Positions 27,075 to 47,251 are shown, counted from the first letter of the stretch. The stretch is DNA of 64,000 nucleotides from Candidatus Omnitrophota bacterium (GCA_043805415.1 JAZDHZ010000034.1:101478-165477), one strand, 5' to 3'. Notes: generated by a model from the letters alone, not told the origin. Numbers and translations: made by a program.

Positions 27075-27176
27075 TCTAATGAAGTAAGGAAGTTATGGAA
27101 AAACGGGGGTTTTGGGGCTTTTTTATCGTCTAAAATTAAACAATTTTAAAAAGTAATTTAAAACTATATGTAAAAT

Positions 27177-27258: not shown

Positions 27259-27274
27259 AAAAAGGAAGGTTTAA

Positions 27275-28969
27275 ATGCATTGTATTTTTTTAAAAAACTT
27301 AGCAAGAGGATTGTTAGTTAATACTGGTTTGCTTGGTTTGCTGGTATTAGCGCAGCTGGTATTACCAGCAAGTTATTTGCACGCGCAGCAAAGCACTAGT
27401 TTTCTCAGCACCAAGATAGAAACATTGGAAGGCCCGAAGCTAAAGAAAACCGCCAAAGTAGAGCAAGTACTGAGGAACCTGGATATTCCCGCGGAATTAG
27501 GGTTTATTAAAGAAATCCACGTGCCCAAGACTCCGACAGAAAAAATGATCATCAATATCCAGGATCTGCATTGTAATTATAAAGCCCAGAAAAACATAGC
27601 CGGCATACTTGAATATTTAACCCAGACCTATGGCTTAAAACTAATCAGCGTAGAAGGCGGATCCGGGAAAATTGATACCAGTTTTTATCAGGATTTACCG
27701 GATGAAAAAATCAAAGAACAAGTCGCGGATTATTTTTTACGCGAAGCCAGAATAAACGGCACAGAATACTTTGCCATTACCACTGATCGGTTGATCCGCT
27801 TATATGGAGCGGAAGATGAAAAATACTATGATAAAAACCTGGACGCGTTTATGCGGGCCCTGCCGGCAAGGGAAATTATTCTGGAGACAATCGCTGTATT
27901 AGAAAATGATCTGAACATTCTAAAAAACAAAAGCTATAATAAAAAGCTCAGAGAACTTGATGATCATATCGTGGCCTATGACAATGGAGAAATGGGATTT
28001 GAAGACTATATCCAATACATATCCAGATTATCCGCGGAACAAAACGTAAAGCAGGAATTTGACCAGGTAAACCAGCTGGTAGAAAGCATTAAATTCAAAG
28101 ACTCGATAAGCATAGAAAAAGCCGAAGCCCAGAGAAAAGAACTGATTGATCATCTGACCAGTAATTTGTCTCGATACGAGATGGAAGAATTTTTAAAAGC
28201 AACCGTAGAATATAAAGCAAAAACCATGGACAATCTGACCTATCACAGCACCTTGCAGAAACTATACAATCAAATGGATAAAAAGAGCCTGACTTTAGAT
28301 CGGAAATGGCCGGATTTAAATGGATACATTGAATACTTAAAAAGACATGAGACCTTGGATAAATTCGCTTTATTTACCCAGATCGACAAACTAGTGGAAC
28401 GGATAAAAAACAGTTTATATACCAGCTATACGCAAAAGACATTAGATTATAATTTAAAGATCGTCAGACTAGCCAGAAGCTTATTTTCCACCAAGCTGCT
28501 GAATAAAGATCTAACTTTAGTCAGCAAATACCACACAGACTTTAATGCTAAAAAGATGAAGACATATATTCAAAAAGAAGCCAAGCGGTTAAAGCTTGAT
28601 TTAGCTATACCGGATGATGAGCGGTTAAAGCAAATGGAAGAGACTTTACCGGCAGTAGAAGATTTTTATCGCTATGCTTCGAAGCGCAATGATATCCTGG
28701 CCAATAATACTTTGGACGGCATGGCTAAAGAAAACGAAGACATCGGAATCCTGATCACCGGAGGATTTCATACTGATGGTATAACCGATTACTTAAAAGA
28801 CAAAAGAATAACTTATATTGTAATCGTGCCCAAGATCGAAGAGCTGGAAACAGATGATACCCGCTATATTAATGCTTTGCAGGGCAAGAAAACGCCGTTT
28901 GAGGAAATGATTGAAAAAGAAGATAAATCAGCAGTAACTCCAGAAACTGCTGATTCAGCAACCCCTTGA
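27275..28969 (+). CDS. Hypothetical secreted protein (564 aa)
   Basis: Signal peptide LLGLLVLAQLVLPASYLHAQQ. AGGAAGG RBS 6 nt upstream. No recognisable catalytic motifs. Confidence 0.5.
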   Translation: MHCIFLKNLARGLLVNTGLLGLLVLAQLVLPASYLHAQQSTSFLSTKIETLEGPKLKKTAKVEQVLRNLDIPAELGFIKEIHVPKTPTEKMIINIQDLHCNYKAQKNIAGILEYLTQTYGLKLISVEGGSGKIDTSFYQDLPDEKIKEQVADYFLREARINGTEYFAITTDRLIRLYGAEDEKYYDKNLDAFMRALPAREIILETIAVLENDLNILKNKSYNKKLRELDDHIVAYDNGEMGFEDYIQYISRLSAEQNVKQEFDQVNQLVESIKFKDSISIEKAEAQRKELIDHLTSNLSRYEMEEFLKATVEYKAKTMDNLTYHSTLQKLYNQMDKKSLTLDRKWPDLNGYIEYLKRHETLDKFALFTQIDKLVERIKNSLYTSYTQKTLDYNLKIVRLARSLFSTKLLNKDLTLVSKYHTDFNAKKMKTYIQKEAKRLKLDLAIPDDERLKQMEETLPAVEDFYRYASKRNDILANNTLDGMAKENEDIGILITGGFHTDGITDYLKDKRITYIVIVPKIEELETDDTRYINALQGKKTPFEEMIEKEDKSAVTPETADSATP

Positions 28970-29257
28970 TTTATTTTTTAAGGCTTATGAATATATCTTT
29001 ATATTTAGCAGTAAGTTAAGCGTTTTAAGCTAAAGAGTAAATACTGGCGGGAAATTTAATAATGTGGTATAATTTACCAGCTTTTTTACGGTTTTATAAT
29101 AGTGCAAGTAATTGAATATTAAAAATTAACAGCATTTTATTGCTGAAATAGTGATTATTTTATATTGCTACTTGTAGTGATTCTAAAAAAAAATAGAATG
29201 ACGAAAAGGTAGTGATTTATTCATTTTTATTTATTTACTTACCAAAAGCAAGGGAAA

Positions 29258-32200
29258 ATGAATTATAAACAGAAATCAAAATTCAGGCTGATATTTAGAG
29301 TCATTGCCAGCGTGCTTTTACAGGCATTTTTATTTACAAATTTTGCCTGGTGCGGTGCTGATCAGTTTATTCAAGGCAATACTGTTTGCGCGCCGGCAAT
29401 TAGCAGTACAACTATTTCTCCCGCGATCCAAGTCACTGAAGCTTCAATTCAAACTCTTTTTGTTCAATCCGCCGCGTTCCAAATGGGCAAAAGAGCAGAG
29501 TTTAAAGGCCTTGATTCTTTAAAGCAGGCAGAAGTGGAAAATGCTTTAGGCGATAAATTTAGTTTAAGCCTGAATCTAAAAGGAAAGCTAAACACCGCGT
29601 CAGTTATTCAAAATATCGAAAAAAGAACAGATATCAAAGCGGATTATAAGAAGATCCTAAACGCGATGATCCTTGAATTCGGCAAACTGGATGTTAAGTT
29701 CTATTCATATGAGACATTAGTTGAGGACTTGTTCGGGTTTGCTTCTGCTGGCAATAAGATGATCGCGATTCATTCCTCGGTATTCAGTAATCCGATTGCT
29801 CAGACGCATGAAATCGGGGAATTCTTAGCGCAAGCAGGAATGCTGAATTTTTCGCTTGGCCAGGATGACCAGCTATTGATCAGCTTAAATGGCAGTTTAA
29901 TCGGCAGGATAAAATTATCGGAAGATGCTTTGGCAATCGCGAAGAAAGATCCGTCCAGTAACCATTATTTGCTGCGGGCTTTTCAACGGGAGGTTTTTCA
30001 GGATAAGGATCGGGCTTTAACCGCTGGGATTAAAAACAAGCAGGGGGATTTATCTTCCGCGATGAAAATTTTTCTTAAAACCATAAATGCTGAGACTGGA
30101 AACAAAGTTGAAGCAAGTATGTCTTTGTCTAAACTTAATGACCCGATGTTCGAGGCGCTGTTTAAAGATATTGAGTTTAATCGGTTTTCCGAAAACGATG
30201 CGGCAAAATTAAAGATAGCGATACTATTGCAGAATAACATTGCTATTGAGCCTATTGCTGAACCCTTGCTTCAAGAGTGCGGGATGCTGAATAAGGAATC
30301 CGCTGATCTTTATGAAACCATATTCCCGGCTGCGGGAACTCCTGGTTTTAGCCCAAAAAAATTATTCGCGAAAGAAAATGTTAATCCGGATAATCTGCAT
30401 CTTATCTTTGAATTAGCTAAGCGCTATAGTCCGATTAAAGCGTTTAGCGATAAGTTAGACAGAATCTACCGCGAGCTTGCCTTATACACATTGCCGGTAA
30501 GTCCGGGAGCAAGATATCATATATCTTTGCTTAAAGATCTAAACAGTATTTTATTGTCCGGAGGACGGATTAAAGAATCAAAGCACTCGCTTAGCGGTCA
30601 GGGTGTTTATTTCTTTGAAATGGGAAATTCCGGCTTAGTCAATGCGCAGACACGCTTAGCTGAGTTTTTCCCTTTTATCTCCAGCTCGCCGCATGATCTG
30701 GCAGATGCGGATTATGTGGTTAAGGCGTTCAGGCAAAAGATTGCCCGAGACGCGAAAGATAATGCCCGGATATTCCCGGTTGTAATCCAGGTTGCTGAGG
30801 ATATCCCGGCTGAAGCTGCGATGGGCTGGGCTTTTCGTGAGGATTATAAAAAGGCGGGAAAGCTTATCCGCGATGAACTTAATGCCCAAGAGTATGAATT
30901 TTTAATCAACCTGAATTATTTATATCTTAGCGAGAACCAAGCGGTTAAAAACCATTTGCTCGCGAAAAATATTATTAGAGAAGAAAACGGGATAATCAGG
31001 CTGGTTGATGCTTCGCGGGCGATTCAGGATGAAAACAAAAAGAATACGGGTTGGGCCAGAATGAGATTTGCTGACTTGCGTTATGAAGTGATCAATCTTT
31101 CCTACACAAAGCTGGATAGTGATATCCAGAAGCTTAGCGCCAAGATGGCTCAATTACTCCAGAATCTTCTCGCTGATAAAATGAGCGTATCTTCGGTTGT
31201 GGATACAGGCTCATCAAATCGCGGGCTTACTGTGGAAAATCCGGATTTTGATTTTCTGATTAAAATTAATTCCCCAGAGGATTTTACGGCAATTGTTAAG
31301 CTGCTGCTTGATGAAAAAATATTAGAAAATTTTCTCAAGGAGCATAAAGCTGCTTTTGAAGCGATCTATGGCGATAAGTCCGTGAGTATTGTCACCGAAC
31401 AGCCGCATGCCGTAGGCAAAGGCAATTTATATTTGTTTCCGTTTAAATTTGTCGCGGCTAACCGGATTGTCGGCGGGGTTGATTTTAATTTTTCCAAGCT
31501 TTCAGCGGGAAAAGCCGAGACTTTGAGCTATCACGAGACAGCGCGGCAGCAGCTGCAAGCCATACTGGATAAAGTTCCCGAAGCAGAACAAAAACAGCTT
31601 TCCCGCTATCTTGCCGGAGAAATTAAAACCCTTAAAAAATTAATTATAAATCAGGGTTTATATAAAGATAAGGATACAAAACGAAATAGATTTATCGGCG
31701 TGGCAGTAGAACAAATGATCTACAATCTCAGCGATTATCTGTCTATGCCAAGCAATATTTCCACTGCTGAAATTAAGAGCATATTTTCAATAAAAACCGC
31801 GCTTTATTTAATCAGCCGGATGGAAAGCGAAAGATTAAATGGTCTGTCATTTTCTCTGTATCAAAGAGCAAATGGAAGCGGGTTTTCTAATCAATCGGTA
31901 AAATACGATTTAAGGGATAATGAAAAATCAGTTATCCCTAAAGTTGGGACGGCTTTTGCCGGTTTTAAAGAGTTTTCAGAAGCGGAAAATGCCGGAGTGA
32001 AAAATAAAATTAAAGGATTAATAACTGATTTTATTAGCCGGCCGGGGAATAAGGTAAAAATTATTGAGTTTTTTGCCAGGTACAATAATGAAGTTGACGC
32101 GGCGATTGCTTTAGGTCAGGCGAAACCTTTTAGTAACTGGGAATTTTTTGAAAGATGGGAATTCACGCACCGGTTTTTTACTCTGCATAAAACAGAGATT

Positions 32201-32560
32201 GATATATTCGCGATAGATAAGACTGATATGTCTCAGGACGCGAAGCTGAAAATAGCGGAAATGATCAACGGATTAAAAGCCGGGATAACTGAGTCAATGG
32301 GTGTGAGTGAAGATAAAATTACCGGTCGGGAAATCACGCGGTGGTTTAAAACTCCTTCTTCGCGGAATAAGCAGCTGAGAGATTTTTATTTTCAATATGG
32401 GGCAATAACAGCAGAACCTATATCCATCCTGGGTTTTGCTGGGTTTTTAATGAATATTCCGGCATTGCGTTCGGCAGCTGATGCTGAGCGAAAAGCGGCG
32501 CCTTTAAGCGGTATTATAAACCGCAAGCCGCTCGAACAATTAGTCGGACAGTCAATATGA
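29258..32560 (+). CDS. Giant-family secreted protein (1100 aa) with a Pol-beta-type nucleotidyltransferase motif
   Basis: Leader MNYKQKSKFRLIFRVIASVLLQAFLFTNFAWC then TTISPAIQV. VVDTGSSNRGLTVENPDFDFLIK (about 31195-31260) matches hG[GS]-x10-DhDh of the minimal nucleotidyltransferase fold. AAGGGA RBS. Extended -10 TGTGGTATAAT at about 29064-29074. Confidence 0.6.
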   Translation: MNYKQKSKFRLIFRVIASVLLQAFLFTNFAWCGADQFIQGNTVCAPAISSTTISPAIQVTEASIQTLFVQSAAFQMGKRAEFKGLDSLKQAEVENALGDKFSLSLNLKGKLNTASVIQNIEKRTDIKADYKKILNAMILEFGKLDVKFYSYETLVEDLFGFASAGNKMIAIHSSVFSNPIAQTHEIGEFLAQAGMLNFSLGQDDQLLISLNGSLIGRIKLSEDALAIAKKDPSSNHYLLRAFQREVFQDKDRALTAGIKNKQGDLSSAMKIFLKTINAETGNKVEASMSLSKLNDPMFEALFKDIEFNRFSENDAAKLKIAILLQNNIAIEPIAEPLLQECGMLNKESADLYETIFPAAGTPGFSPKKLFAKENVNPDNLHLIFELAKRYSPIKAFSDKLDRIYRELALYTLPVSPGARYHISLLKDLNSILLSGGRIKESKHSLSGQGVYFFEMGNSGLVNAQTRLAEFFPFISSSPHDLADADYVVKAFRQKIARDAKDNARIFPVVIQVAEDIPAEAAMGWAFREDYKKAGKLIRDELNAQEYEFLINLNYLYLSENQAVKNHLLAKNIIREENGIIRLVDASRAIQDENKKNTGWARMRFADLRYEVINLSYTKLDSDIQKLSAKMAQLLQNLLADKMSVSSVVDTGSSNRGLTVENPDFDFLIKINSPEDFTAIVKLLLDEKILENFLKEHKAAFEAIYGDKSVSIVTEQPHAVGKGNLYLFPFKFVAANRIVGGVDFNFSKLSAGKAETLSYHETARQQLQAILDKVPEAEQKQLSRYLAGEIKTLKKLIINQGLYKDKDTKRNRFIGVAVEQMIYNLSDYLSMPSNISTAEIKSIFSIKTALYLISRMESERLNGLSFSLYQRANGSGFSNQSVKYDLRDNEKSVIPKVGTAFAGFKEFSEAENAGVKNKIKGLITDFISRPGNKVKIIEFFARYNNEVDAAIALGQAKPFSNWEFFERWEFTHRFFTLHKTEIDIFAIDKTDMSQDAKLKIAEMINGLKAGITESMGVSEDKITGREITRWFKTPSSRNKQLRDFYFQYGAITAEPISILGFAGFLMNIPALRSAADAERKAAPLSGIINRKPLEQLVGQSI

Positions 32561-32602: not shown

Positions 32603-35600
32603 ATGAATTATAAAAAATCAAAATTCAGGCTAATCTTTAGAATAATCTCATTAGTGCTTATCCAGGCATTTCTGGTGCTTGATTTTGCCTGGGCAATAGG
32701 CGGAGAATTTCCTATTGCTGATAAAATTTCTCAGGCTGCTACGCTTGCCCCGAAAATTAGTTTAAACACTCAGGAAGTCTGGGATGCTTATGTTTACAGT
32801 TCGCAAAATTCAGCTAAGATCAATGAACTTTCCTTACCTTCTGATCAGCCGATGGTTAATATTCCCAACCAATCTCCCCTGATCAGCCGGAGAGCGTTTT
32901 TCAAAACTGTTGGGCAAAAGGTTATTGGGGCTGCCGCGGTATTAACCGGAGCGGATCTGATATTGTCGGCGCCGGCAGAAGCCAGAGACTTAACCGTGGC
33001 TTTAAGCGATTTAGTGATCAATTTTGATAAAGGGGTTGCTGAAGCGGAGTTAAATAAATATATCGCGATTATTGAAGCTCAGGGTTTTAAAGAGTTATAC
33101 AGTTTAGAAAAAAAACAAGCGCAGACATTAATCAGAATTAAGGGGTTATTCCCGCTGAACGCGGAAAAATTATCTTACGCGCTTAATGCTCAGGCTAAAG
33201 CCAGAGGTCTGGCCAAAGGGTTTGTGGTCACAGCTAGTGACGCGAGCTGGAAGCAATCGCTTACTTATCGGAGCATGCAGGCTTTTGCGAATAAAGTAGC
33301 GCGTCTTTCAGCCAGCCTGGGATTCGGGGAGATCGATTCTCCGCAGCTTATTGGGCTTTATGAGGGGATTACCTGGGTTGAGAGTAAATTTAACCAATGG
33401 GAAACCGATGCCCAGGGCAGAATCAGACCAGTAAGGTCATATACCAATGCTATCGGAGTTACCCAGGTTATAGAATCTCAGGCTGTTAAGCAGATTGCCA
33501 GGTGGATAGTAACGCATAAGGGTGGAATATCCCGCTACGCGGAAATCATGAATGAGCTGGAAAGAATGATTTCCTCTGATAGTGAAAAGCTAAAGAAATC
33601 ACTCAAGGCGAATAAGAAATTCGGGGAAGAAGCCGAAGCCCTGAAACAGTTTAATGTCTATGCTGATTTCGCGGCTTATAAAAATGCCGGATCAGATATT
33701 GAAAAACAAAAACAGATAATTCAACGAATTCACAGAAAGATCAATAGTAATCCTAAGCTTATCGGCGTGAATTTATATTACGCGCTTGCTGTTTGGCAGT
33801 ATTTACAAAACAGGAATAATCTGCGAGCGGGAGTTACCGCTGAGCTTGCCGAATCAATGGGGCAAACCGGACAAGGGCTGACCAGAAAAAATCTTCCGCT
33901 TATTGAATCCGGTTCCGGGGCATATCAGCCAATGGATCTGGAAAAAGCCGGCTTGCAGTTTGAGAGTGATTATTTCCGCTTAAATCTGCTTTATCAAATG
34001 ATTAATCCCGAGAAGATTGCTGAGCTTTTGCAAGGCGCGGAAAGTAAAATATTAGTCAACACCATGGAATACTTATCGCGGCAGATGATGACAAAAATAG
34101 GCAACCAAAAGCTTGGCTATACTTATCTTACGCTGAACTGGGATCGATACCGCCGCCTGGAACTAAGGAAAAATAAAAATAATCAATATGAGTTTACCGA
34201 AAGGCCTTTAAGTTATTTTCAAAATAAGCCTAATGGTTTTTCCGTGAGTCTTGCCGCGGCAGCTTCATATAATTCCGGGACTGGCAGTGTGGACGATGCT
34301 TTGCTGAATTTTGGTAATGCCGTAGACGCGAATAATCTTCCCTTATGGATTAAAAATATGATCGGAGCCAATCCCCAAAATATTCGGGAGCCGATAAATT
34401 ATTTAAGGGTTTTTCTGGAAGATAAGTTTAATAATACCGGAGATCTCTCGGCCCAAGAGCAAAAAATTAAAAACGAGCTTATTGCCGAACGCTATAAACG
34501 CGTTTATAAAATCCAAGACCGATTGCTGGAAAAAAGAGCTTTAATCCACAAAAACAAGGTTCGGATATACGCGGCTTATCGGCGCGATGATGGTTTTGAT
34601 TATAAGCTGGCTGCCTGGGTTGCCCAGATCGCGGGCAGTGATTATGTGGATAGTTTTTTAAGAACCCATGGATTGGATAAAAAATGGCAAGAGGAAATTC
34701 TTAAATCTTCCCAGACACTTGATATTTTAGCACCGGCTTTGGCAGATGTGAATTCGCCGGGATATGCTGCCGCGGTAAATATCCGGCGGTATTTAGATTC
34801 AAAACAGCTGGCTTCTTTGGCTAAGCGGCAAGAAGCCTTTAAGTCTAAAGAACAGGCCCGGATCGCGAGAATTGAACTGGCTAAACAAATATCTAAGGAA
34901 AAACAATGGCAGAAAACCCTGGAGGGAATGACCAGCTGGGCAATGCGTTCCACGGTCGGGGTTGCTTCGCTTGGCGCGGCCGGCGCGATTGCCTGGATTA
35001 TAAACCGCAGGGTCAAGCTGGGTAAAAAACCAGTGCCTTCGCTTATCTATCGGCTGCCATTGCAGGGTTTTTGGATTCTGGGATTTGTTACTGTCCGGCT
35101 GTTCGCGATAGTTGGAAAAATTCTGTTTGGAACCGGTAAATATGTATTCAGCTTTTTTGCTAAAGCAAAACCGCGGATAAATAAACCAAGAAGCGCGCTT
35201 CTTGCCGATCAAAAGGTAGTTAGAAATAACCGGGTTAAACAAGCGGAAAACAGATATAAAAATAAGAACCGCTTTTTTTCAATAGCTAATTTAAAAAAAC
35301 TGATTCTGGGATCAATCTTACTGGCAATAATTGCCTGGCCTTTTGCTTCCCCGGCTTTTTCTCACGCGTCGCAAAAGCAGGCACAAGCTCCTCCGGCAAT
35401 TAGTTTAAGCCAAGAATTTAAAAAAGGCTTAATTGAAATCAGTAAGAAAAGTGACCATAAGCAGCTGAATGCTCAGGGCGAGCTTACCACAATAAAAGCT
35501 AATTTAAAAAAGAATCTTGAATTCAGCAATAGCAAAGCCCGGGAAAGGGTAGAGCAGATCAATCAGTTAGCGGAAAGAAATTGGCAAAAAGCGTATGTTA

Positions 35601-38600
35601 ATGGCGAATTAGATGAATACATAACAAAAAGAGGGCAGTCAGAAGATGCTCTTGCGATTGGCAAGGCGCTGTTTATTTTGCAAAGCGCTGCTCCGGAAAT
35701 TTATCAAGGTTTAAAAAAATATAATGCTTCTATATATCTGGCAGAGATCCCCTTCTATGGTTACGCGCGCGGTTCACGAGTATTTGGGCTTGGCGGCAAA
35801 CCAATGGTATTTGTAAATAAAGATTTTCTGAATAATCCTTTCAAAATCGCGCTTGTTTTATCTCACGAAGGTCATCACGCGATTCTTTTGCCCAAAGATT
35901 TACTGGAATCCGCGCTGCGGTATAATTTTTTTACTTTTATCAGGGATGTATTGTACAGTATTCCCCAGGGGGAAAAAGAAGCTTTCGAGATCCAGGCGGG
36001 AGTGGCCAGAGTTTTTTATATTGAGCCGATAAAAGGAAATATGTCTTATGACCCGCTTGATGTGGAAATTGCTTATGGTAGTCAGAAATGGCAAATAGTT
36101 GGGTTGGATATTTTAGGTACCGGCTTGTTCAATGTTATTCCTTTGATTGCCGGATGGTTAATCCTAAAGTTTTTTATGAATAGCAGCCGCGCTGGAAAAA
36201 GCCGAGATTATCAAAGATCAGGCAGCGGGGGATTGTCTAATCTGATAAACAGCAATTCAAGAAATAACAAGCGTCTGATTAGAAAAGGACGCGGTAAACG
36301 CAAAGGGAATTTCTTTTGGTCAATTATTTTAATCCCTTTGCTTGCTTTTCAATTCAGCAGTTTTCTTAGTCCCGCGATTACTCAAGCAAGTGATGTTTTT
36401 ATCCAGCCTCAGGAGAAAACAGAAATAACCGAGTATAAAAATGAACAGATTATAAATCCGATCCTTGGCACTGATCTTAAAGTAAACTCCCATTTTGGCC
36501 CACAGGAAGGAAAGCATAATAACGCGTTAGCTGATTGGTCCGAGGCGGTGATCAGAGGAGTTATTCAGCCCAACGCGGATATAATCCATGTTGATTTTCA
36601 TGCTGATGATTCCGGCGCGGTAATGGACGCGGATATGCTGGCCTTGAACGAAGTTAAGAATTTAAAAACTTCTCAGGAAAAAATCCAGGCAGTGCGGGAT
36701 ATCGCGGCTCATCTGAGAATAGATTCGTTTTATTACCCGGCTTATTTAACCGGACCAACCGGTCAATCAATATTGGGCACAACCTTTTGGGTTCGTCCGG
36801 AAGCAGAATGGCAGGGCGCGGCGAAAGAGCAATATATTGTCAGTGCTCCCTATGGAACGTTCCCCACGGATCATCCTGAGAAATATCCAAATGACAAGAG
36901 GATCAAAAGGTATGAGCTTAATGCCGATGATTTATCTTTAGTCGGGAAAAATGCTCAGTTAAAAAATGGGTTTATTCTGGACATTGATCTGGATTATTTT
37001 ACTTTGCATCGGGAAGATATGAATTGGGTTTATATGCGGGAGCTGCTTGAAAGAAAAGATGAAGCTTCTCAGAAATTAGCAAAGTCGATTCTTAAGACAG
37101 TCCACTATCAGCCGACCAGGCAGCAGCTGCAAAAAAATATTGATTTGTTTATTGACCAGCTCGCGAAGCTGCATGAACGCGGTATAGACCCGGGAATCAT
37201 TTCTGTTTTTGAATCACCGAATTTTACAGCTTATGCTGATGCTAAATGGGTAAATGACCAGTTAGTAAAGGGGTTCAAAGCTATTTACGGCAAAGGCTCT
37301 GCTTTAGCCGCGAAAGACCAGAAACCAAAGAGCGCGGCAAGCTCTGGCTGGAAAAAAATCTCAATCATGGGATTGGTGTCTGTAATCTCCGCGTCTTTTG
37401 CTAATTTGTTTTCCGTGGCTAATCTCTGGGCCATGGAAAATGGAGCGGATAAGGCTTTTGCTTCCTCTGATTTTAAATCAATAGTAACCTACCTTATCAC
37501 AATCGCCTTAATTGGCTTTTTAGTTAAATCGGGATTAAAAGCGCTTAGTTTAGCTAAACAAAAAAACGCGGAACAGCAGGCCGCGGTGATTGTTCCCAGC
37601 CAGGCGGCTTTGGATAAATTAAAAAAATTAGACACTGACATCAGCGCTTTATTTGCTCAAGGGAAAACTCAGGTTATTATCGCCTTTGACGGTCCCTCCG
37701 GCGCGGGCAAGACAACATTGGCTAATTATATTAAGGCAGTTGGTATTGCCGGAATACAGCCATCTGAAATACAGGTATTGTCGCGTGATGATTACGCGGT
37801 TGGCGGTGATTATAATGAGGCGAATATCGTGATTTTAGAAAAAATCTGGCATCGCGGAAAATTAGTTATTGTTGAGGGCAATGGAATCCAGTGGGCCAGT
37901 GCGGTATTAGCAGCAGATGCCGCGTATGCTAATCCGGATATATTTGTTAAAATAACCGCTGCTGAACAGCTGCGCAAACAAAGGCTATTAGAAAAAGGCT
38001 TGTCAGAGTCAGCGGCAAGTGAGCGGATTAGAACAGCATCTGGTCCTGATTCCGGTTTGTTTGATATTATTATTCAAGATCCTTATATCGAGGTTAACAG
38101 CTTGCGCAAGTCCGCGGAATATATAAAGGCTGAGAGCATATTGCGTTCATATCCTAATGACTCCGGCCTTGCTTTAATTCGTGAATTTGTCTTAGATCAA
38201 ATGCTTAGTTCTGATCGGCGCGGTATTATTGTTTATCATAATGAGCGCCATCTTAATGAGTTGTTTGAGTTTTTTGATGCAATATCAAAGCATTTACCGT
38301 TTAAAAATAAAGCCAGCGCCGAGCGTTTGATCCGCATGGCGATTTATCTGCATGATCTGGGCTACTTTTATTCAGAAGATGGATTGCTTATTCCTGGGCA
38401 TGAACAAAGAAGTAAAGATGAGGTTCTTGAATTTGTTAAGAAAAATCCCGGAATATTGTCCGCGGTTGAAGTCCAGTCGATTATGTATCTGATTGATAAA
38501 ACGCAGCTTAAAACCGGTGACGCGATTAAAAATGAAATCAGCGATGATAATAAAACCTATGACTTGCTGGATCGAATTAATAACGCGCAAGAATCAGGTT

Positions 38601-41542
38601 TAACTGCTGAGGATCAACAGTTTTTAGCAAGTTTTATGGAAAAAAACTTTCCGGACGCGAATCCGCGGAATCCGCGAGACCGGCAGCTGGTGCTGGATAC
38701 TATTTTGGGTGGCAAAGCCTTGGCTTTAGCGGATATCTGGGGCCAGGACCAGACATATCTTTATCAGGTTGCTTTATTAAGTCAGGAATTCCGTTATGAT
38801 AAACAGATAATGCTGAATAATAATGATCCTAACGCAGCCAAAAGCCCGGCAGCTATGAGCAATCTGGAACAGGTCGGGGGAAGCAGCGGATTCCAAAGCT
38901 TTGCTCAAGACATGAGGTTTGTTTTCTTTTTAAATAGCGCGGATTATCCGATGCTGGGCATGCAGCAGTATCTTGACGCGGAACAAAAGGAAAAACAAGC
39001 AAAAGGGGAAAAAGAAAAAGCGCTTATTGACCGCAGAACAGCGATGATTGAAAAGAGCAATCAGGTTCAATCTTTAACCAATGTTTTGACCAGCGGAGTT
39101 GATGAAAACCTTAATATCATCGGCCTGGCTAAAGACACTGATCAGCTTCCTCAGGTTATAGCTTTAAAAGAATTTATCGATGAAGGCCTTGGATTAGGCA
39201 TATACGATGACGCGCAAAAAGCGCAGTTAATCTCGGAAATAAACAGCAGAAACGGACTGATTTTCCGGGGAATAGACAATCAGTTTGATCTAGCGGTAGA
39301 CGCTGCTTACATCGCGGAGCTTGCTCCGACTGTTGATGATATATTAATCAGTTCAAAATTTGCTGAAATTTTAAGTGAGCAGGAATTAGCGGAATTGACT
39401 TCTTCCTGGGAGATTAAGAAGTTTTCTCCTGGTCAAGCGATTGTCCAACAGGATATTCCTGATGCGCAAGGGGTTTTTCTGATCCTATCCGGAAATCTGG
39501 ATGTTTTTGTCAATGGATATCATGTGGGGGAAATTCCTCAGGGTGAGCTGTTTGGGGAAATGTCAGTGCTTGATAGTGCTTTGCGCAGCGCCACTGTAAG
39601 AGTTTCTCAGCTTGCCAGCCAGCAGGCGGTAATCGCGGAAATACCAGCGCCTGTATTCACTAAATTATTCGGGGCAAACCGACAGCTGAAACAAAAGATT
39701 AAAGCCCTGATTCAGACAAGAAAAGAAAATTCGCGAAAGGTTTTGGACGCGGAAGAAGAAAAAGATGATGAAGTAAAATTAAAACATAAATTTGAAAGCG
39801 GCCAGCTGGATACAGTGGTTTTTGTTGATGTTGATCTGATGCGTTTAACCAATCAGTATGTTGCCAAGAAAAATGTGAATGTTTTGCTTGATGTTCTGGA
39901 AACAGAATTTGAAAAAGTGATAAAAGCTCTGGGCGCTGAAAATGCCGTAAGCCTGCGCCGCGGAGGAGATGAATTTATTCTGGCAATTAATTCCCGCGAA
40001 AATAAGCAGCAAGCGATTGATATTGCCGCAAAACTTAAAAATAATGTTCAGAGCGCGAAATTTTCGCTTGCTTCAATCGGAACTGACAGGCTTTCTCAGG
40101 AAAGAATCGCGGAAATCGAAAGTTTTGGATGCGGCATAGACACGATCGGTAAGCATAATATTATAATTGTTGGGCAGAAAACAGGCGGTAAAACAGGCCG
40201 GGCTTGTGTGCAGGAATTTCTCGATACAGTCAATGCCATTAGCAGCTTAAAAAATCCGGAAAACCCGGAAGCGGAAGTTTTAAGCATTCAAAGCTCTTGG
40301 CTGGACCAGCCGGCTGTTAACAATGAAGTTAGTTTTACCTTGTCAATCGGCTTGGCAAATGTATCTGAAATTGACAATGTGCCTGGATCTAATCTTTATG
40401 AAAAAGCGCGCAACTTCGCGGCGCAAAGAAAAGATAAATCAAAAGAAATATTTAAAAAACTCGGAGATGGACATATTGAAGCTGTTTCCAGTTTCGCGCC
40501 CTTGGGCGTGGCTGGGGAGAGTATTCTTTTGACTGAGCAAGCAATTGCTGAGCACGCAGATTTCGAACAGCTGCAGGCTGAAGCTAATCGCCTGGAAGCT
40601 GAGCAAATGGAAGCTGAGCAAATCCCGACAGGCATCAGGCATAAGTTTGCCGAAGGTGAGGAGGTATTGTATTTTTCTTCAGAAAATGCCGCGCGGAGTC
40701 ATCTTAACGCGATGCGAGACAATCAGGAACTTAATGCGGCGATTGCTTTTTCGCTGCAAGGATTGGGTTATTATGATCAGGAAGGAAAGATTGATCAATA
40801 TAAAGCGGAATACTACACTTCCCCTGGGGCAGTTAAAGATAATCGGATAGATATCCGTGATTTTAAAGTGGTTAATGAAGCGCATGGCTATGTGGCGGGT
40901 GATGAAATTATCGCGCGCCTGCGCATCGGCGCGATGCGCTTTGCCAGGTTATTTGAGAACTTTGATCTGGTATTTGCCCGCGGCCCTCCGGCAGGACCAA
41001 ATGGATTTCTTATTCCAAAAACAAAACAAGCCGCTGAAATGAACCCAACAGAAGTGCAGGTAATGTTTGTTGAATATATGCGGCAAATAAGAGATTATTT
41101 TAATAAACCGAATGAATCGGCTGTAAAAGTCGGGCAGTTAAGAGTTGTTTGGGATCGAGTTAGCCAAGAGGATAAAAATATCGGAAATGTGATCGAGCGG
41201 ATTAGTCAGACACGCGCGGTTTATGAACAAAAAACTAAACCGAAAAAAGGCAGAAACATGGTTTTAAGATATGATCCTAGTATCCCGGATAAGTGGAGCT
41301 CATTAGCGGAACTTAATGCCCCGGATGCTGTCGCGCAGCTTGAGAATCTTAAAATTATATGGCAGCAAAATAAGCAGCAGTTAGATGCTTTTGCTAATTC
41401 CCGGAAAGTTAGCGGAACCCTGAGACTTGGCACAAAGATTGATTCCATAGATCCTGGATTGCGCGGACCTGCGTTTTCTCTGCAAGGTGATAATCTTAAT
41501 CAGCAATCAAAAAATATCTCTCTTCTGGAACAAGCGATTTAA
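32603..41542 (+). CDS. Giant-family mosaic membrane/secreted protein (~2979 aa): SLT-like lytic transglycosylase, HExxH, uridine-kinase/PRK-like P-loop, HD phosphohydrolase, cNMP-binding, GGDEF, degenerate GGDEF
   Basis: Leader MNYKKSKFRLIFRIISLVLIQAFLVLDFAWA then ATLAPKISL. Internal Tat-like ISRRAFFKTVG...ILSAPAEA (~32883). SLT-like GITWVESKFN...NAIGVTQVIESQA (~33300-33560). SHEGHHAIL (~35866). IIAFDGPSGAGKTTLANYI...QVLSRDDY (~37690). HD: YHNERHLNELF...IYLHDLGY (~38230-38560). cNMP: ELFGEMSVLDSALRSATV (~39380-39720). GGDEF: VVFVDVDLMRLTNQYV...SLRRGGDEFILAI (~39790-40280). Second GGDEF-like DIRDFKVVNEAHGYVAGDEIIARL lacks the GGDEF residues (~40830-41050). Several TM helices. Confidence 0.7.
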   Translation: MNYKKSKFRLIFRIISLVLIQAFLVLDFAWAIGGEFPIADKISQAATLAPKISLNTQEVWDAYVYSSQNSAKINELSLPSDQPMVNIPNQSPLISRRAFFKTVGQKVIGAAAVLTGADLILSAPAEARDLTVALSDLVINFDKGVAEAELNKYIAIIEAQGFKELYSLEKKQAQTLIRIKGLFPLNAEKLSYALNAQAKARGLAKGFVVTASDASWKQSLTYRSMQAFANKVARLSASLGFGEIDSPQLIGLYEGITWVESKFNQWETDAQGRIRPVRSYTNAIGVTQVIESQAVKQIARWIVTHKGGISRYAEIMNELERMISSDSEKLKKSLKANKKFGEEAEALKQFNVYADFAAYKNAGSDIEKQKQIIQRIHRKINSNPKLIGVNLYYALAVWQYLQNRNNLRAGVTAELAESMGQTGQGLTRKNLPLIESGSGAYQPMDLEKAGLQFESDYFRLNLLYQMINPEKIAELLQGAESKILVNTMEYLSRQMMTKIGNQKLGYTYLTLNWDRYRRLELRKNKNNQYEFTERPLSYFQNKPNGFSVSLAAAASYNSGTGSVDDALLNFGNAVDANNLPLWIKNMIGANPQNIREPINYLRVFLEDKFNNTGDLSAQEQKIKNELIAERYKRVYKIQDRLLEKRALIHKNKVRIYAAYRRDDGFDYKLAAWVAQIAGSDYVDSFLRTHGLDKKWQEEILKSSQTLDILAPALADVNSPGYAAAVNIRRYLDSKQLASLAKRQEAFKSKEQARIARIELAKQISKEKQWQKTLEGMTSWAMRSTVGVASLGAAGAIAWIINRRVKLGKKPVPSLIYRLPLQGFWILGFVTVRLFAIVGKILFGTGKYVFSFFAKAKPRINKPRSALLADQKVVRNNRVKQAENRYKNKNRFFSIANLKKLILGSILLAIIAWPFASPAFSHASQKQAQAPPAISLSQEFKKGLIEISKKSDHKQLNAQGELTTIKANLKKNLEFSNSKARERVEQINQLAERNWQKAYVNGELDEYITKRGQSEDALAIGKALFILQSAAPEIYQGLKKYNASIYLAEIPFYGYARGSRVFGLGGKPMVFVNKDFLNNPFKIALVLSHEGHHAILLPKDLLESALRYNFFTFIRDVLYSIPQGEKEAFEIQAGVARVFYIEPIKGNMSYDPLDVEIAYGSQKWQIVGLDILGTGLFNVIPLIAGWLILKFFMNSSRAGKSRDYQRSGSGGLSNLINSNSRNNKRLIRKGRGKRKGNFFWSIILIPLLAFQFSSFLSPAITQASDVFIQPQEKTEITEYKNEQIINPILGTDLKVNSHFGPQEGKHNNALADWSEAVIRGVIQPNADIIHVDFHADDSGAVMDADMLALNEVKNLKTSQEKIQAVRDIAAHLRIDSFYYPAYLTGPTGQSILGTTFWVRPEAEWQGAAKEQYIVSAPYGTFPTDHPEKYPNDKRIKRYELNADDLSLVGKNAQLKNGFILDIDLDYFTLHREDMNWVYMRELLERKDEASQKLAKSILKTVHYQPTRQQLQKNIDLFIDQLAKLHERGIDPGIISVFESPNFTAYADAKWVNDQLVKGFKAIYGKGSALAAKDQKPKSAASSGWKKISIMGLVSVISASFANLFSVANLWAMENGADKAFASSDFKSIVTYLITIALIGFLVKSGLKALSLAKQKNAEQQAAVIVPSQAALDKLKKLDTDISALFAQGKTQVIIAFDGPSGAGKTTLANYIKAVGIAGIQPSEIQVLSRDDYAVGGDYNEANIVILEKIWHRGKLVIVEGNGIQWASAVLAADAAYANPDIFVKITAAEQLRKQRLLEKGLSESAASERIRTASGPDSGLFDIIIQDPYIEVNSLRKSAEYIKAESILRSYPNDSGLALIREFVLDQMLSSDRRGIIVYHNERHLNELFEFFDAISKHLPFKNKASAERLIRMAIYLHDLGYFYSEDGLLIPGHEQRSKDEVLEFVKKNPGILSAVEVQSIMYLIDKTQLKTGDAIKNEISDDNKTYDLLDRINNAQESGLTAEDQQFLASFMEKNFPDANPRNPRDRQLVLDTILGGKALALADIWGQDQTYLYQVALLSQEFRYDKQIMLNNNDPNAAKSPAAMSNLEQVGGSSGFQSFAQDMRFVFFLNSADYPMLGMQQYLDAEQKEKQAKGEKEKALIDRRTAMIEKSNQVQSLTNVLTSGVDENLNIIGLAKDTDQLPQVIALKEFIDEGLGLGIYDDAQKAQLISEINSRNGLIFRGIDNQFDLAVDAAYIAELAPTVDDILISSKFAEILSEQELAELTSSWEIKKFSPGQAIVQQDIPDAQGVFLILSGNLDVFVNGYHVGEIPQGELFGEMSVLDSALRSATVRVSQLASQQAVIAEIPAPVFTKLFGANRQLKQKIKALIQTRKENSRKVLDAEEEKDDEVKLKHKFESGQLDTVVFVDVDLMRLTNQYVAKKNVNVLLDVLETEFEKVIKALGAENAVSLRRGGDEFILAINSRENKQQAIDIAAKLKNNVQSAKFSLASIGTDRLSQERIAEIESFGCGIDTIGKHNIIIVGQKTGGKTGRACVQEFLDTVNAISSLKNPENPEAEVLSIQSSWLDQPAVNNEVSFTLSIGLANVSEIDNVPGSNLYEKARNFAAQRKDKSKEIFKKLGDGHIEAVSSFAPLGVAGESILLTEQAIAEHADFEQLQAEANRLEAEQMEAEQIPTGIRHKFAEGEEVLYFSSENAARSHLNAMRDNQELNAAIAFSLQGLGYYDQEGKIDQYKAEYYTSPGAVKDNRIDIRDFKVVNEAHGYVAGDEIIARLRIGAMRFARLFENFDLVFARGPPAGPNGFLIPKTKQAAEMNPTEVQVMFVEYMRQIRDYFNKPNESAVKVGQLRVVWDRVSQEDKNIGNVIERISQTRAVYEQKTKPKKGRNMVLRYDPSIPDKWSSLAELNAPDAVAQLENLKIIWQQNKQQLDAFANSRKVSGTLRLGTKIDSIDPGLRGPAFSLQGDNLNQQSKNISLLEQAI

Positions 41543-41728
41543 ATTATTCCTAATTTATAAGTAATTACTTGCCAAGCACTTACAATCCTGGAAAACCCTG
41601 CGCCAAAACCCCTGATTTGCTTGTAAAACCATAAGCTTTATGGTATACTTAAAACCTTTTTAAATTAATACAAAAGTGTGTAACATCTTTATTTACTATT
41701 AGTTAATGTTTAATGCGAGGAGTTGATT

Positions 41729-43429
41729 TTGAACTTAAAATTTCTTAAATGCGCAATGATTTTATTTATGGTTTTTCTCCTGAATACAAAAAATTGCTTT
41801 GCTGATTTGCTTTCTGAATCTTTTCTTAGCCCGGTATCAAATATTGATCTGGGATCATTGCAAAAAACATTTACCTATTTAGTAAATGAGCAAACTTATT
41901 CAGAATATAAAGCAATCTTTGAAATCAATGATCAGGATAAACCGCGGCGCGATCTTAAAGCGCGGGATTTAGAAGATTTTTTACAAGTCATAACCGATAT
42001 TCGCTTGATCCTGGAAATGTTTTCCCAGGGAAATGCGTTTAAAGGAATTATGAACCAGGCAGATAAAGAAACAATAGATGATTTCCTGAGCAATCATCCG
42101 GATGAGATTGAGCTGCTGAAAGATTCAGGAATTAAACCTGTTCTTAGCGCTATCCTTGAGCGCGCTTTGGCGCAGCTGGCTGCAAGGCAAAGAGCGGTCC
42201 CGTCTTTGGCTGAAACCATGTATAAGGAATTAATTTTTAGATTAAAAACAAAGCTGGAAACAGCCGCGGGAATGCTTAAGACAGGCATGCCGATTAAATC
42301 AATCAATTTTAATCAGGAAATACTTTCCTATCTAAAACCAGAAACCCTTAACCGGATAATCGAAAACATTAACTGGCAAAATCAAGACCCTGATGATTAT
42401 AGCGGGCAAAGAAAGATTATTTTAAACCTGGATAAACCAATTGTTTTGGAAAACGGTAAAATAATCAACTCAATTGAAATCAAAGGAGTTGTTTACCGAA
42501 AAGATGAGGTTGCGGTTACTCCTTTACAGGAGAGGTTTAACACAATAAAAGTTCCAAGATTAGACAAAAACAATCTAACTGCTTTGAAAAAAAGAGTACA
42601 TTTAAAAGGCGGAATGCCTTTTGCCGCGGCTAAAAGAGAATATATGATTTTAGAAAAACTTTACGCGCAAGGTAATTACCAGTATGATTATCCCATCGGA
42701 TACGGCAGGTATAAGAATTATACGTTCCAGGGCAAACAATTTGGATTTATCATCACAGGTGTGGAAAATTCAAGGCGAACAAGAATGGGCGACTGGTTTT
42801 TTGATAACTATCAGGAGATTTTTGATTTACTCACGATTGATAAAGTCAGATTCGCTAATTTAGCAGTAGAACTCTTTGAGGTTCATGAAACTTTTCTCAG
42901 GCATTATGGCCGGGAGTTGCGGAGGTTTCATGACAGCGGATTTTATCATGGTTATCCGCATACTTTAAATGTAAGCTGGGATAAAGAATTTAAAAATATC
43001 GTGCTTAATGATTTTGAAGCCAGCAAGCTGATTTCCCATTTGCCTGTTGAAAAAAGAGTTGGCTACCGATTGATAGATCTAAGCTCGGCTTATGCCCATT
43101 TTATTTACTTTCTTACCAATGATCGGGATTTAATGGAACTAGCGGCGTTTTCCGAAGGCATGAATCATCTGAATAATCCTTTTCGCTATTTTCTTCAGGG
43201 GTATTTTGGCAATGATTTGCCAAATTTTAATTTTGATGGTTTTATGAGTGAAGCTATTTATCCGGCGGTTGTGTCCGGGGTAGATGTGATTAATGACCTG
43301 GATCAGGATATTGTGAGTAAACTTTTGAATATTGAAGGCGCGGATTATAAGCGAGTTAAGTATATTGATCAAATTGTTTTTGATGCGCAGGGCTTTGTAA
43401 ATGAACTTGCCTGTCAAGAAGCGATCTAG
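41729..43429 (+). CDS. Hypothetical secreted protein (LSP-motif family)
   Basis: GAGGAG RBS 6 nt before the TTG at 41729 (alternative starts at 41723 or 41756). Signal peptide ...FLLNTKNCFA then FLSPVSNI. No recognisable catalytic motifs. Confidence 0.45.
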   Translation: MNLKFLKCAMILFMVFLLNTKNCFADLLSESFLSPVSNIDLGSLQKTFTYLVNEQTYSEYKAIFEINDQDKPRRDLKARDLEDFLQVITDIRLILEMFSQGNAFKGIMNQADKETIDDFLSNHPDEIELLKDSGIKPVLSAILERALAQLAARQRAVPSLAETMYKELIFRLKTKLETAAGMLKTGMPIKSINFNQEILSYLKPETLNRIIENINWQNQDPDDYSGQRKIILNLDKPIVLENGKIINSIEIKGVVYRKDEVAVTPLQERFNTIKVPRLDKNNLTALKKRVHLKGGMPFAAAKREYMILEKLYAQGNYQYDYPIGYGRYKNYTFQGKQFGFIITGVENSRRTRMGDWFFDNYQEIFDLLTIDKVRFANLAVELFEVHETFLRHYGRELRRFHDSGFYHGYPHTLNVSWDKEFKNIVLNDFEASKLISHLPVEKRVGYRLIDLSSAYAHFIYFLTNDRDLMELAAFSEGMNHLNNPFRYFLQGYFGNDLPNFNFDGFMSEAIYPAVVSGVDVINDLDQDIVSKLLNIEGADYKRVKYIDQIVFDAQGFVNELACQEAI

Positions 43430-46731: not shown

Positions 46732-46820
46732 ATGGCTAATGGTCAATGGTCGATAGTCAATAGTTTTTACTTTAAACTATAAGCCATAAGCTATTAGCTA
46801 TCGACTTTTTTTTAGATTGG

Positions 46821-47251
46821 GGGGTGAAGGGTTTCGACTTATGTGGATGTTATAAGGGCAGCATGTCGAGGTGGTCGGGAGGCCTCGTTAAACACCTGGC
46901 AAAATAATAAATGCTGAAACTAAAGTTCCAGTAAGTGTAGATGCACTTCTTGAGAGAATTGGATCGGGCATTGCTCATCCGACTTTCACAGGATTTGTAC
47001 CTGCAGCAGTGTTACTTTAATAAAATAAAGTAACCCGTTTTTTGGCCTTTTGTCTGGGGGGTCAGAGAACGTCATTTACAGGCTCGCTTTACCTGGTTGG
47101 TTTTTGACAGGTAAGGTTAAACACTCAAAAGCTGCCTGTTTAAGTACCTCGCCTATTGGGGATTTAAACAGAAAGATAAACAATAGGCTAAACATGTAGA
47201 TACTCTTATTTGTCGCTTAAGGACGCGAGTTCGATTCTCGCCACCTCCACC
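46821..47251 (+). ncRNA. ssrA: tmRNA (ssrA), standard one-piece
   Basis: 5' GGGGGUGAAGGGUUUCGAC pairs with 3' ...GGACGCGAGUUCGAUUCUCGCCACCUCCACCA (tRNA-Ala-like acceptor with G3-U, T-arm GGTTCGATTCC, CCA). Internal tag reading frame ends ...PAAVLL followed by UAAUAA. The resume codon could not be fixed by eye. Confidence 0.8.

Follow-up and report, generated by a model that had tools for sequence, protein, structure and literature searches.

A compact mosaic multi-pass protein of Candidatus Omnitrophota that joins a putative lytic-transglycosylase-like module to cyclic-nucleotide domains

A compact relative of the Omnitrophota giants

The Omnitrophota are uncultured, ultra-small and probably host-dependent bacteria, and a part in attacking other cells has been proposed for their very large multi-pass proteins. 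The Archaeovorins of this phylum are giant proteins defined by a length of >30,000 amino acids (aa) and numerous transmembrane (TM) regions, most of them with divergent SecA-DEAD domains; according to the preprint describing them, many carry GGDEF domains, SLT domains being rarer (West-Roberts et al., 2023, bioRxiv 10.1101/2023.11.21.568195). A 2026 preprint catalogues long Omnitrophota proteins with signal-transduction modules (10.64898/2026.06.07.730766). Here we analyze a gene from a 64,000-nucleotide stretch of a Candidatus Omnitrophota bacterium (GCA_043805415.1, JAZDHZ010000034.1:101478-165477; the whole stretch is referred to as the window). Its 2,979-aa product, here called Q (homologs carry P-numbers and their loci L-numbers), strings together an N-terminal lytic-transglycosylase-like module (N-module), several inserted modules and a cassette of cyclic-nucleotide-binding (cNMP-binding) and GGDEF-type domains. 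Our best reading, offered tentatively, is that of a multi-pass inner-membrane fusion protein in which envelope-facing hydrolases would be tethered to a cytoplasmic cyclic-nucleotide cassette.

Like the Archaeovorins and the proteins of the 2026 catalogue, Q belongs to the Omnitrophota and is a mosaic of poorly conserved modules set between TM helices. Both preprints describe the difficulty with topology that Q also presents, and cytoplasm-type enzymes that are predicted to lie 'outside'. Q differs from the Archaeovorins in being ~10-50 times smaller (2,979 aa) and in having no SecA-DEAD, HEAT or glycosyltransferase match. An earlier reading of the sequence alone (the original prediction) could match this protein to no described architecture. 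That view does not stand: multi-TM Omnitrophota giants with GGDEF and SLT domains are described by West-Roberts et al. (2023), and the sequence itself is deposited, so that the kind of object is already known. Among the mosaic multi-pass proteins known from the phylum, Q is a compact one.

Term searches in the two preprints found no passage on the N-module family, on a Tat-like signal or on the leader and tail signature described below, and a literature search for an SLT-GGDEF fusion returned nothing specific apart from the Archaeovorin preprint. What appears to be new, as judged from sequence comparison, is the following: a small, very divergent lytic-transglycosylase-like family with an embedded Tat-like signal, repeatedly coupled to signalling outputs; a gene that can be reconstructed as a module-insertion derivative of a shorter ancestor; and an apparently obligatory unit of a GGDEF domain and a degenerate partner with an altered base-contact residue, together with the correction of an HD assignment. 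Size and poor annotation put the Omnitrophota giants beyond study, and Q and its relatives of 1,000-2,000 aa offer the same logic at a tractable size; the shortest form, N-module, TM and GGDEF pair, has ~1,550 aa. If wall cleavage is coupled to a second messenger, this would be a mode of envelope or cell-contact sensing not met in these descriptions. If the two are uncoupled, the family would still be a very divergent lytic-transglycosylase lineage.

The gene was recovered as one open reading frame (ORF) of the predicted extent, from an ATG at 32603 to a stop codon at 41540-41542 (the mechanical ORF start is a TTG at 32582):

32603-41542, + strand: whole gene, 2,979 aa, identical to NCBI MFH1062776.1 in a protein search

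The NCBI entry is titled 'MAG: UPF0489 family protein [Candidatus Omnitrophota bacterium]' and lies on a 169.5-kb contig. The window reads as an ordinary bacterial chromosome, with genes for SMC, a TPR/Peptidase_MA protein, a HemN-like radical-SAM enzyme, tRNA-Leu(GAG), GH116, SmpB and tmRNA. The source is a metagenome-assembled genome and the same modules stand as separate genes elsewhere, both of which would fit a chimeric assembly or separate genes read through owing to sequencing errors. Against this, P0002 (2,855 aa), from the independent assembly Logan SRR21677147, aligns with aa 1-2932 of Q in a single high-scoring segment pair at 52% identity, covering ~98% of its length with the module order uninterrupted. 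The P0002 locus (L001) also has the gene order of the window neighbourhood: Peptidase_MA/TPR, HemN, tRNA-Leu(GAG), an ortholog of ORF 27275, the giant gene, GH116, a 138-aa gene and SmpB. In addition, GC content is uniform along ORF 32603-41542 (~0.42), and partial fusions in the same order occur in further genomes. Because a collinear end-to-end ortholog sits at a syntenic locus in a different assembly, mis-assembly, a concern raised with the original prediction, is excluded; on this comparison the gene is real and conserved, not an assembly chimera, and an artefact is next to inconceivable. Identity between the window and L001 is 74-94% for flanking genes and only 52% for the giant, ranging from 19% to 80% per 100 residues between Q and P0002. 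By this measure the giant gene evolves far faster than its surroundings, yet it retains its frame and module order.

The lytic-transglycosylase-like module and the cyclic-nucleotide cassette

Family-1 lytic transglycosylases carry a catalytic Glu in an E-S motif, followed by G-L-M-Q-like and A-Y-N-x-G motifs. Candidate counterparts of all three are found in the N-module:

32990-34948, + strand: N-module (aa 130-782), a small ferredoxin-like sub-domain and then a lysozyme/SLT-like core
33374-33391, + strand: motif I, WVES (E260-S261)
33455-33484, + strand: motif II, GVTQ (G285-Q288)
34256-34294, + strand: motif III, SYNSG (Y556-N557-x-G559)

In a 10-sequence alignment, E260-S261, G285-V-T-Q288 and Y556-N557-S-G559 occupy nearly invariant or invariant columns, and the core is interrupted by an insertion of ~270 aa between motifs II and III. 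In the AF2 model of the N-module, helix 117-133 has the catalytic Glu at its C-terminal end and short strands come next, an arrangement shared with lysozyme-type folds. Neither Pfam SLT (PF01464) nor NCBIfam gave a match in Q at E<=1. The best SLT scores within the family are all below the 21.3-bit cutoff (P0016, 20.3 bits, model 13-48; P0002, 16.3 bits, model 74-114; P0012, 14.5 bits), and these weak matches lie at homologous positions, with the N-terminal half of the model in P0016 and the C-terminal half in P0002 and P0012. PDB sequence profile searches with 4- and 10-sequence N-module profiles returned no lytic transglycosylase, nor did a Foldseek comparison of the good AF2 model with the PDB. 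The SLT segment of the original prediction is thus borne out by the three conserved motifs and the weak Pfam matches in relatives, while no SLT match reaches threshold; we regard the N-module as a divergent lytic-transglycosylase-like module in which putative catalytic motifs are retained.

The family is small. An exhaustive HMMER search with the N-module profile gave 19 representatives among 1.84 billion proteins, and a scan of ~186,000 species genomes gave eight N-module loci, six titled Omnitrophota and two 'uncultured Planctomycetia'. By these searches the N-module family is tiny and essentially confined to Omnitrophota. It differs from family-1 lytic transglycosylases such as Slt70, MltE and MltC in the ~270-aa insertion, in a C-terminal TM anchor and in the signalling domains fused behind that anchor. 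These downstream outputs vary: a GGDEF pair in P0009/L011, HD plus a GGDEF-like motif in P0003/L012, cNMP-binding plus HATPase_c in P0015, HATPase_c in P0013, and a UPF0489-like/amidohydrolase-like region in P0010/L010. Fusion of the N-module to the GGDEF pair is seen in Q, P0002 and P0009/L011; in L014 the two are encoded by adjacent genes. The union of an SLT-like module with cNMP-binding and GGDEF domains across membrane segments, the core of the original prediction, is therefore upheld: it is one conserved polypeptide, and the pairing recurs independently.

The C-terminal cassette comprises three regions:

39332-39742, + strand: cNMP-binding domain (aa 2244-2380)
39551-39598, + strand: phosphate-binding cassette FGEMSVLDSALRSATV, with its Glu and Arg, conserved in P0002
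39794-40477, + strand: GGDEF domain 1 (aa 2398-2625), with a ~75-aa insertion before the FTLSIG strand
39821-39853, + strand: FVDVDLMRLTN (aa 2407-2417)
39866-39889, + strand: invariant NVN (aa 2424-2426)
39956-39976, + strand: RRGGDEF (aa 2452-2458)
40334-40357, + strand: FTLSIG
40775-41242, + strand: degenerate GGDEF-like region 2 (aa 2725-2880)
40844-40909, + strand: RIDIRDFKVVNEAHGYVAGDEI
40979-41005, + strand: invariant RGPPAGP, where a lost GGDEF signature had been noted earlier

The cNMP-binding call is confirmed by Pfam cNMP_binding (PF00027), which scores 37 bits at aa 2272-2356 (cutoff 27.5), and by PKG structures (E 5.6e-13); the domain is also present in P0002 and P0015. The same region matches the PDB structure of PycTIR (8jsk, E 1.3e-6) and the PADLOC PycTIR model (56.5 bits), which would fit an anti-phage defence protein of the Pycsar or CBASS kind. 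A Pycsar system has a gene for a PycC cyclase and an effector in which a cNMP-binding domain is combined with a TIR or TM killing domain. The PADLOC match is limited to the cNMP-binding part (positions 28-151 of 288), PADLOC found no TIR domain, PycC-type cyclase or other defence match among the neighbours, and the locus is chromosomal and syntenic, between housekeeping genes. We therefore rejected a defence system, which is extremely improbable here, as only the cNMP-binding part of the PycTIR model was matched.

GGDEF domain 1 scores 22.9 bits against Pfam GGDEF (PF00990) at aa 2400-2489, where the cutoff is 23.8, and its relatives pass (P0002, 30.5; P0005, 30.4; P0006, 34.5; P0009, 30.6 bits). 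A six-member profile matches DosC (4zve) with E 2.3e-4, and both the D-x-D...N element and RRGGDEF are invariant in the six members and aligned to DosC. Diguanylate cyclases may also carry an optional RxxD inhibitory site five residues upstream of GGDEF; Q has none, the upstream sequence reading AENA-VSLRR-GGDEF. The domain had been called canonical. Its motif is intact and relatives pass the Pfam threshold, but the word overstates the case, as an Asn stands in for a base-contacting Asp (see below) and RxxD is absent.

Region 2 had been read as GGDEF-like with its signature lost, and RGPPAGP stands in that place. It gives a 25-residue partial match to Pfam GGDEF (13.3-17.3 bits, model 38-62) in two of four members and a match to NCBIfam GdpS (E 0.0039), and it retains D-x-x-D-F-K-x-x-N-x-x-x-G-Y-x-x-G-D; hhalign found no profile similarity between domain 1 and region 2. 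Region 2 always accompanies domain 1, in all six proteins, and the two probably work as an intramolecular pseudo-dimer. The original prediction also considered that region 2 could be an allosteric receptor.

Modules inserted into a shorter ancestor

Between the N-module and the cassette lie four further modules, one of them overlooked in the original prediction:

35369-36082, + strand: HExxH module (aa 923-1160), a putative gluzincin-type metallopeptidase
35864-35878, + strand: HEGHH (H1088-E-x-x-H1092)
35972-35995, + strand: E-x-x-A-F (E1125)
36512-37012, + strand: UPF0489/peptide-arginase-like module of ureohydrolase fold (aa 1304-1470), the overlooked one
37583-38137, + strand: P-loop nucleoside/nucleotide-kinase-like module (aa 1661-1845)
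37691-37717, + strand: Walker A, GPSGAGKTT (aa 1697-1705)
37778-37795, + strand: LSRDDY
37862-37885, + strand: LVIVEG
38138-38992, + strand: all-alpha domain (aa 1846-2130), called HD in the original prediction
38234-38251, + strand: YHNERH
38345-38365, + strand: YLHDLGY

The HExxH motif and the E-x-x-A-F motif 32 residues downstream are invariant in Q, P0002 and P0008, which share 36-49% identity in this module. The arrangement of HExxH plus a downstream Glu would be compatible with that of gluzincins. The module matches no Pfam family and gave spurious matches only in a PDB profile search; the motif itself stands as predicted, and neither a family profile nor a structure match accompanies it.

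The neighbouring UPF0489 module passes the Pfam cutoff (PF12640, 27 bits) when the segment is searched alone (31.1 bits) and scores 25.3 bits in the whole-protein scan. NCBIfam pept_arginase matches with E 6.6e-11, yet at 42.2 bits as against the cutoff of 350 for this FlmR/OhkR model. OspR (8brp) is matched with E 3.7e-6, and its six binuclear-Mn ligands (H12, D39, H41, D43, D165 and D167; PMC10028609) align to identical residues in Q, where H1305, D1331-x-H1333-x-D1335 and D1462-x-D1464 are the putative metal ligands. The passed UPF0489 cutoff and the full set of ligands make up the likeness to the peptide arginases OspR and FlmR/OhkR; the module of Q differs from these in sitting between the TM segments of a giant protein, without the gene context of a peptide that is made on ribosomes and then modified post-translationally (RiPP). 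It is the least conserved part of Q relative to P0002 (19-25% identity). As it is absent from P0008 and degenerate in P0002, where the ligands are lost (HVDFHADD to AMEMRAQD), it is a lineage-specific insertion.

In the kinase-like module the Walker A, LSRDDY and hhhhEG motifs are conserved, with 52% identity to P0008, and P0002 lacks ~50 of its residues. AAA_18 (cutoff 29.4) scores 22.1 bits in Q and 28.9 in P0008, and NCBIfam PRK06547 (E 4.4e-6) and PRK09270 (E 3.7e-4) match far under their own cutoffs. The uridine-kinase/PRK-like P-loop of the original prediction is thus retained as to its Walker A and associated motifs, remains below the Pfam thresholds, and is plausibly of nucleoside/nucleotide-kinase-like type.

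For the all-alpha domain that follows, an HD phosphohydrolase had been proposed. No Pfam or NCBIfam HD match (PF01966) was found at E<=1, PDB searches with 2- and 3-sequence profiles gave no meaningful match (best E 0.55, phosphodiesterase 5h2q), and hhalign put the probability of a match between this domain and the genuine HD domain of P0003 at 0.4%. An AF2 model of the region built from a 2-sequence alignment is all-alpha, with a pLDDT of 47.9 that makes it unusable and its Foldseek matches meaningless. Q and P0002 share YHNE(R/H)H and LHDLG; P0014, the only further homolog of the segment (33% identity over 263 aa), reads QYNASQ and MRDLG, with RD for HD and both upstream His residues absent. 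P0014 has a separate HD-like stretch, 'FWMHDLTKD', resembling the Pfam-scored HD of P0003, and no Pfam HD match. Two signals of class-I cyclic-nucleotide phosphodiesterases were insignificant and serve as a lead at most: 5h2q, which has an E of 0.55 and aligns to YHNxxH, and PDE10, matched by the poor model at E 1.4. The HD identity of aa 1846-2130 is not supported, there being no profile support and the metal ligands not being kept in P0014.

How the gene came by these modules is suggested by its relatives. At L011, a site syntenic with the window (SMC 79%, Peptidase_MA 80% and HemN 64% identity, and tRNA-Leu(GAG)), the gene has 1,567 aa and corresponds to Q 1-895 joined to Q 2385-2930; the window gene is therefore best described as this short gene plus ~1,490 inserted residues. 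By this alignment the insert consists of the HExxH, UPF0489, kinase-like, alpha-helical and cNMP-binding domains. In L004 a 623-aa gene joins the HExxH module straight to the kinase-like module and adjoins a 943-aa gene for a GGDEF pair. The gene thereby documents stepwise mosaic growth by module insertion at one chromosomal site.

Membrane arrangement, direction of signalling and genomic neighbours

The several TM helices of the original prediction were located as 8-9 hydrophobic segments by a Kyte-Doolittle scan with flank charges, and the predicted family leader and internal Tat-like motif were likewise recovered:

32603-32695, + strand: K/R-rich hydrophobic N-terminal leader MNYKKSKFRLIFRIISLVLIQAFLVLDFAWA (aa 1-31), with similar leaders in other ORFs and homologs
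32741-32764, + strand: TLAPKISL motif after the leader
32885-32983, + strand: internal Tat-like signal (aa 95-127), SRRAFFK, a weakly hydrophobic h-region, then SAPAEA
34949-35356, + strand: membrane region 1 (aa 783-801, 820-852 and 900-918), with strongly basic loops, ending in a signal-peptidase-like FSHA|SQ
36095-36367, + strand: membrane region 2 (aa 1165-1183 and 1237-1255), the two separated by a very basic loop
37364-37537, + strand: membrane region 3 (aa 1588-1606 and 1627-1645)
41522-41539, + strand: C-terminal tail ...LLEQAI, common to leader-bearing proteins

At aa 95-127 the S/T-R-R-x-F-L-K consensus, the weakly hydrophobic h-region and the AxA site are all matched, and a twin-arginine motif lies directly N-terminal of the N-module in eight of ten family members. 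The signal is not at the N-terminus of the precursor, starting at residue 95 of Q, C-terminal to the hydrophobic leader. In P0004 and P0011 the motif reads MDRRGFLK..., at ~residue 1030 and 1935, and resembles a former N-terminus that is now internal.

In the fusion protein that we tentatively favour, the N-module would bind and cleave peptidoglycan glycan strands, either those of the cell itself or those of an attached host or prey cell, and on that same membrane side the HExxH and arginase-like modules might act on peptides or further substrates in the envelope. Engagement of substrate would alter the activity of the GGDEF pair through the TM segments, with the adjacent cNMP-binding domain modulating the pair further as a second input. 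In this outside-in scheme, which other TM sensor-GGDEF proteins also follow, the status of the envelope or of cell contact would be turned into a nucleotide second messenger. The pattern is that of a transmembrane sensor because an apparently exported hydrolase-like module recurs with interchangeable cytoplasmic outputs. The cAMP-sensing phosphodiesterase Bd1971 of Bdellovibrio is a protein of cNMP/c-di-GMP cross-talk, and Q, as read here, would follow the general logic of both it and the TM sensor diguanylate cyclases: a module outside, TM, and GGDEF inside in the one case, cNMP-binding beside c-di-GMP enzymology in the other. Q differs from the TM sensor diguanylate cyclases in that its input appears to be a catalytic wall hydrolase, not a ligand-binding domain, and in that its GGDEF domain has an obligatory degenerate partner, Asn for Asp and no RxxD.

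Several observations weigh against this outside-in interpretation, in which the activities and the direction of signalling are putative. Hydrophobicity and the positive-inside rule give no consistent topology for Q; the arginase-like insertion adds three hydrophobic segments, so that simple counting puts the nucleotide-dependent domains outside the cytoplasm. A hydrophobic leader comes before the Tat-like motif, and the same leader heads GH77, glucan-water-dikinase-like, SAM-methyltransferase, GGDEF and kinase-like proteins. Opposite the Asp of the DosC GHxxGD motif, the guanine-contacting D344 of PleD, the family has an invariant Asn (the second residue N in NVN), and the product may therefore not be c-di-GMP. 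Lastly, not every module can be needed for a shared function, as the arginase-like module is degenerate in the ortholog and P0002 lacks ~50 kinase-like residues.

The same domain layout would also serve control in the opposite direction, with the cytoplasmic cassette (cNMP-binding domain, GGDEF pair and P-loop) sensing nucleotide state and gating the envelope hydrolases through the TM segments, so that wall cutting is licensed by the physiological or attachment state. Uncontrolled lytic transglycosylases are dangerous to the cell, and a cNMP-binding domain is itself an input domain, both of which speak for such inside-out control. We nevertheless consider it unlikely, since family members swap their cytoplasmic part (GGDEF, HATPase_c, HD, amidohydrolase-like), which is more typical of one input with interchangeable outputs.

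The membrane segments themselves suggest a further possibility, namely that the chain is a polyprotein, cut at internal signal-peptide-like segments into separate envelope enzymes and a membrane-anchored signalling protein, the fusion serving co-expression and stoichiometry in place of allosteric coupling. Three segments, at aa 885-922 (..FSHA|SQ), 1225-1262 (..ITQA|SD) and 1583-1612 (..NLWA|ME), each have a basic n-region, an h-region and an AxA-like end; the same modules are separate neighbouring genes in L004 and L014; and possible cleavage of giant proteins is raised by West-Roberts et al. (bioRxiv 10.1101/2023.11.21.568195). AxA-like sites, however, are so short that chance often produces them where TM helices end, and one uninterrupted 9-kb ORF is kept in two lineages at 52% identity. 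A polyprotein is in our view a rather improbable explanation.

Whether the N-terminal modules are exported at all is the point at issue in another proposal, a membrane-tethered but largely cytoplasmic multi-enzyme scaffold, for which the leader and hydrophobic segments would be anchors and nothing more, and whose SLT-like, HExxH and arginase-like modules would be non-catalytic or have their substrates in the cytoplasm. The leader heads enzymes of cytoplasmic type (GH77, glucan-water-dikinase-like, SAM methyltransferase, the GGDEF pair of P0005 and the kinase-like P0008), the characterised peptide arginases are RiPP maturases (PMC10028609), taken to act in the cytoplasm, and, according to the 2026 preprint, 46% of long Omnitrophota proteins are 'TM-only' with their bulk predicted cytoplasmic (10.64898/2026.06.07.730766). 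The conserved Tat-like signal before the N-module argues for export, as does the positive-inside topology of P0008, a clean one in which the HExxH module is outside and the kinase-like module is inside. Moreover, known lytic transglycosylases act outside the cytoplasm. A scaffold of this kind is quite unlikely. More speculative, and very unlikely in our estimation, is an extension in which the N-module family is a new class of input: a Tat-exported, catalytically competent lytic-transglycosylase-like enzyme would directly drive interchangeable outputs, the GGDEF/degenerate pseudo-heterodimer with its altered base-contact residue would make a signal other than c-di-GMP, and a Pycsar-effector-like cNMP-binding domain would read it, giving a self-contained circuit that leads from wall cutting to a non-canonical cyclic nucleotide and is used in attachment to host or prey.

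The leader is shared beyond Q, similar ones heading window ORFs 6256, 11183, 29258 and 53147 and most of the homologs P0002-P0013, and it goes together with a characteristic C-terminus. Eight of the 37 + strand ORFs in the window end in [A/S]-I-COOH (GQAI, GQAI, DASI, GQSI, EQAI, QEAI, EHSI and LNSI):

6256-11184, + strand: ORF with this tail
11183-15142, + strand: ORF with this tail
26245-27012, + strand: ORF with this tail
29258-32560, + strand: ORF with this tail
32603-41542, + strand: the giant gene
41723-43429, + strand: ORF with this tail
48991-51357, + strand: ORF with this tail
53147-55489, + strand: ORF with this tail

All eight begin with a hydrophobic segment, several with a K/R-rich '..LIQAFLV.DFAWA' leader, and in seven of them an 'LSP/LAP-x-[LIVA]-x-[LIV]' motif lies 37-53 residues into the protein. 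The tail occurs in no housekeeping ORF of the window, and the combination of leader, LSP motif and tail is also found in other Omnitrophota homologs. Several leader/tail proteins contain cytoplasm-type enzymes (GH77, glucan-water-dikinase-like, SAM methyltransferase and the GGDEF pair). Leader, LSP motif and tail may together form a lineage-specific signal for sorting, tethering or processing. At 6256-15142 two large adjoining leader-bearing proteins, both with large unannotated regions, comprise a 1,642-aa protein with a GH77 4-alpha-glucanotransferase domain and a 1,319-aa protein with an alpha-glucan water dikinase Ig-like N-terminal domain; their domain content suggests membrane-tethered alpha-glucan metabolism.

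Among the genes around the giant, a single one is consistently conserved near its relatives:

27275-28969, + strand: partner gene, 564 aa, with invariant IQDxHxNxxAQ, EG and ILITGGFHTxGIT motifs

In L002/L012 and L004 the gene related to the giant has an ortholog of ORF 27275 (62-82% identity) as its immediate upstream neighbour; in L001 one gene lies between the ortholog (84%) and the giant, as in the window. P0004 carries a similar region (29% identity), fused upstream of its N-module; P0011, a relative of P0004, has the same N-terminus. The protein gave no Pfam or PDB profile match; its motif pattern may resemble that of the TraB/Tiki/ChaN-type 'GxxH' superfamily. ORFs 29258 and 41723, on the other hand, are not conserved beside relatives of the giant. 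A nucleotide-signal pair with the upstream ORF 29258 had been proposed on the strength of a nucleotidyltransferase (NTase) motif. This ORF has no Pfam NTase match, and the functional pairing is rejected because only its leader matches anything in the related loci.

Three further observations concern the neighbourhood. Between tRNA-Leu(GAG) and the giant (25854-32560) gene content differs among syntenic genomes: the window has ORFs 26245, 27275 and 29258, L001 has genes of 683, 567 and 496 aa, and L011 has none. Just beyond its hinge (aa 525-627), at aa 667-744, the SMC protein of the window (17669-21625, 1,318 aa) has an AMPK1_CBM/CBM48 glycogen-binding module (50 bits, cutoff 26.8), which is unusual for SMC; the L011 ortholog is of equal length and 79% identical. 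The tmRNA gene adjoins smpB (46820-47252), and the long tag peptide that ARAGORN predicts for it, ALLERIGSGIAHPTFTGFVPAAVLL, may have an atypical ending.

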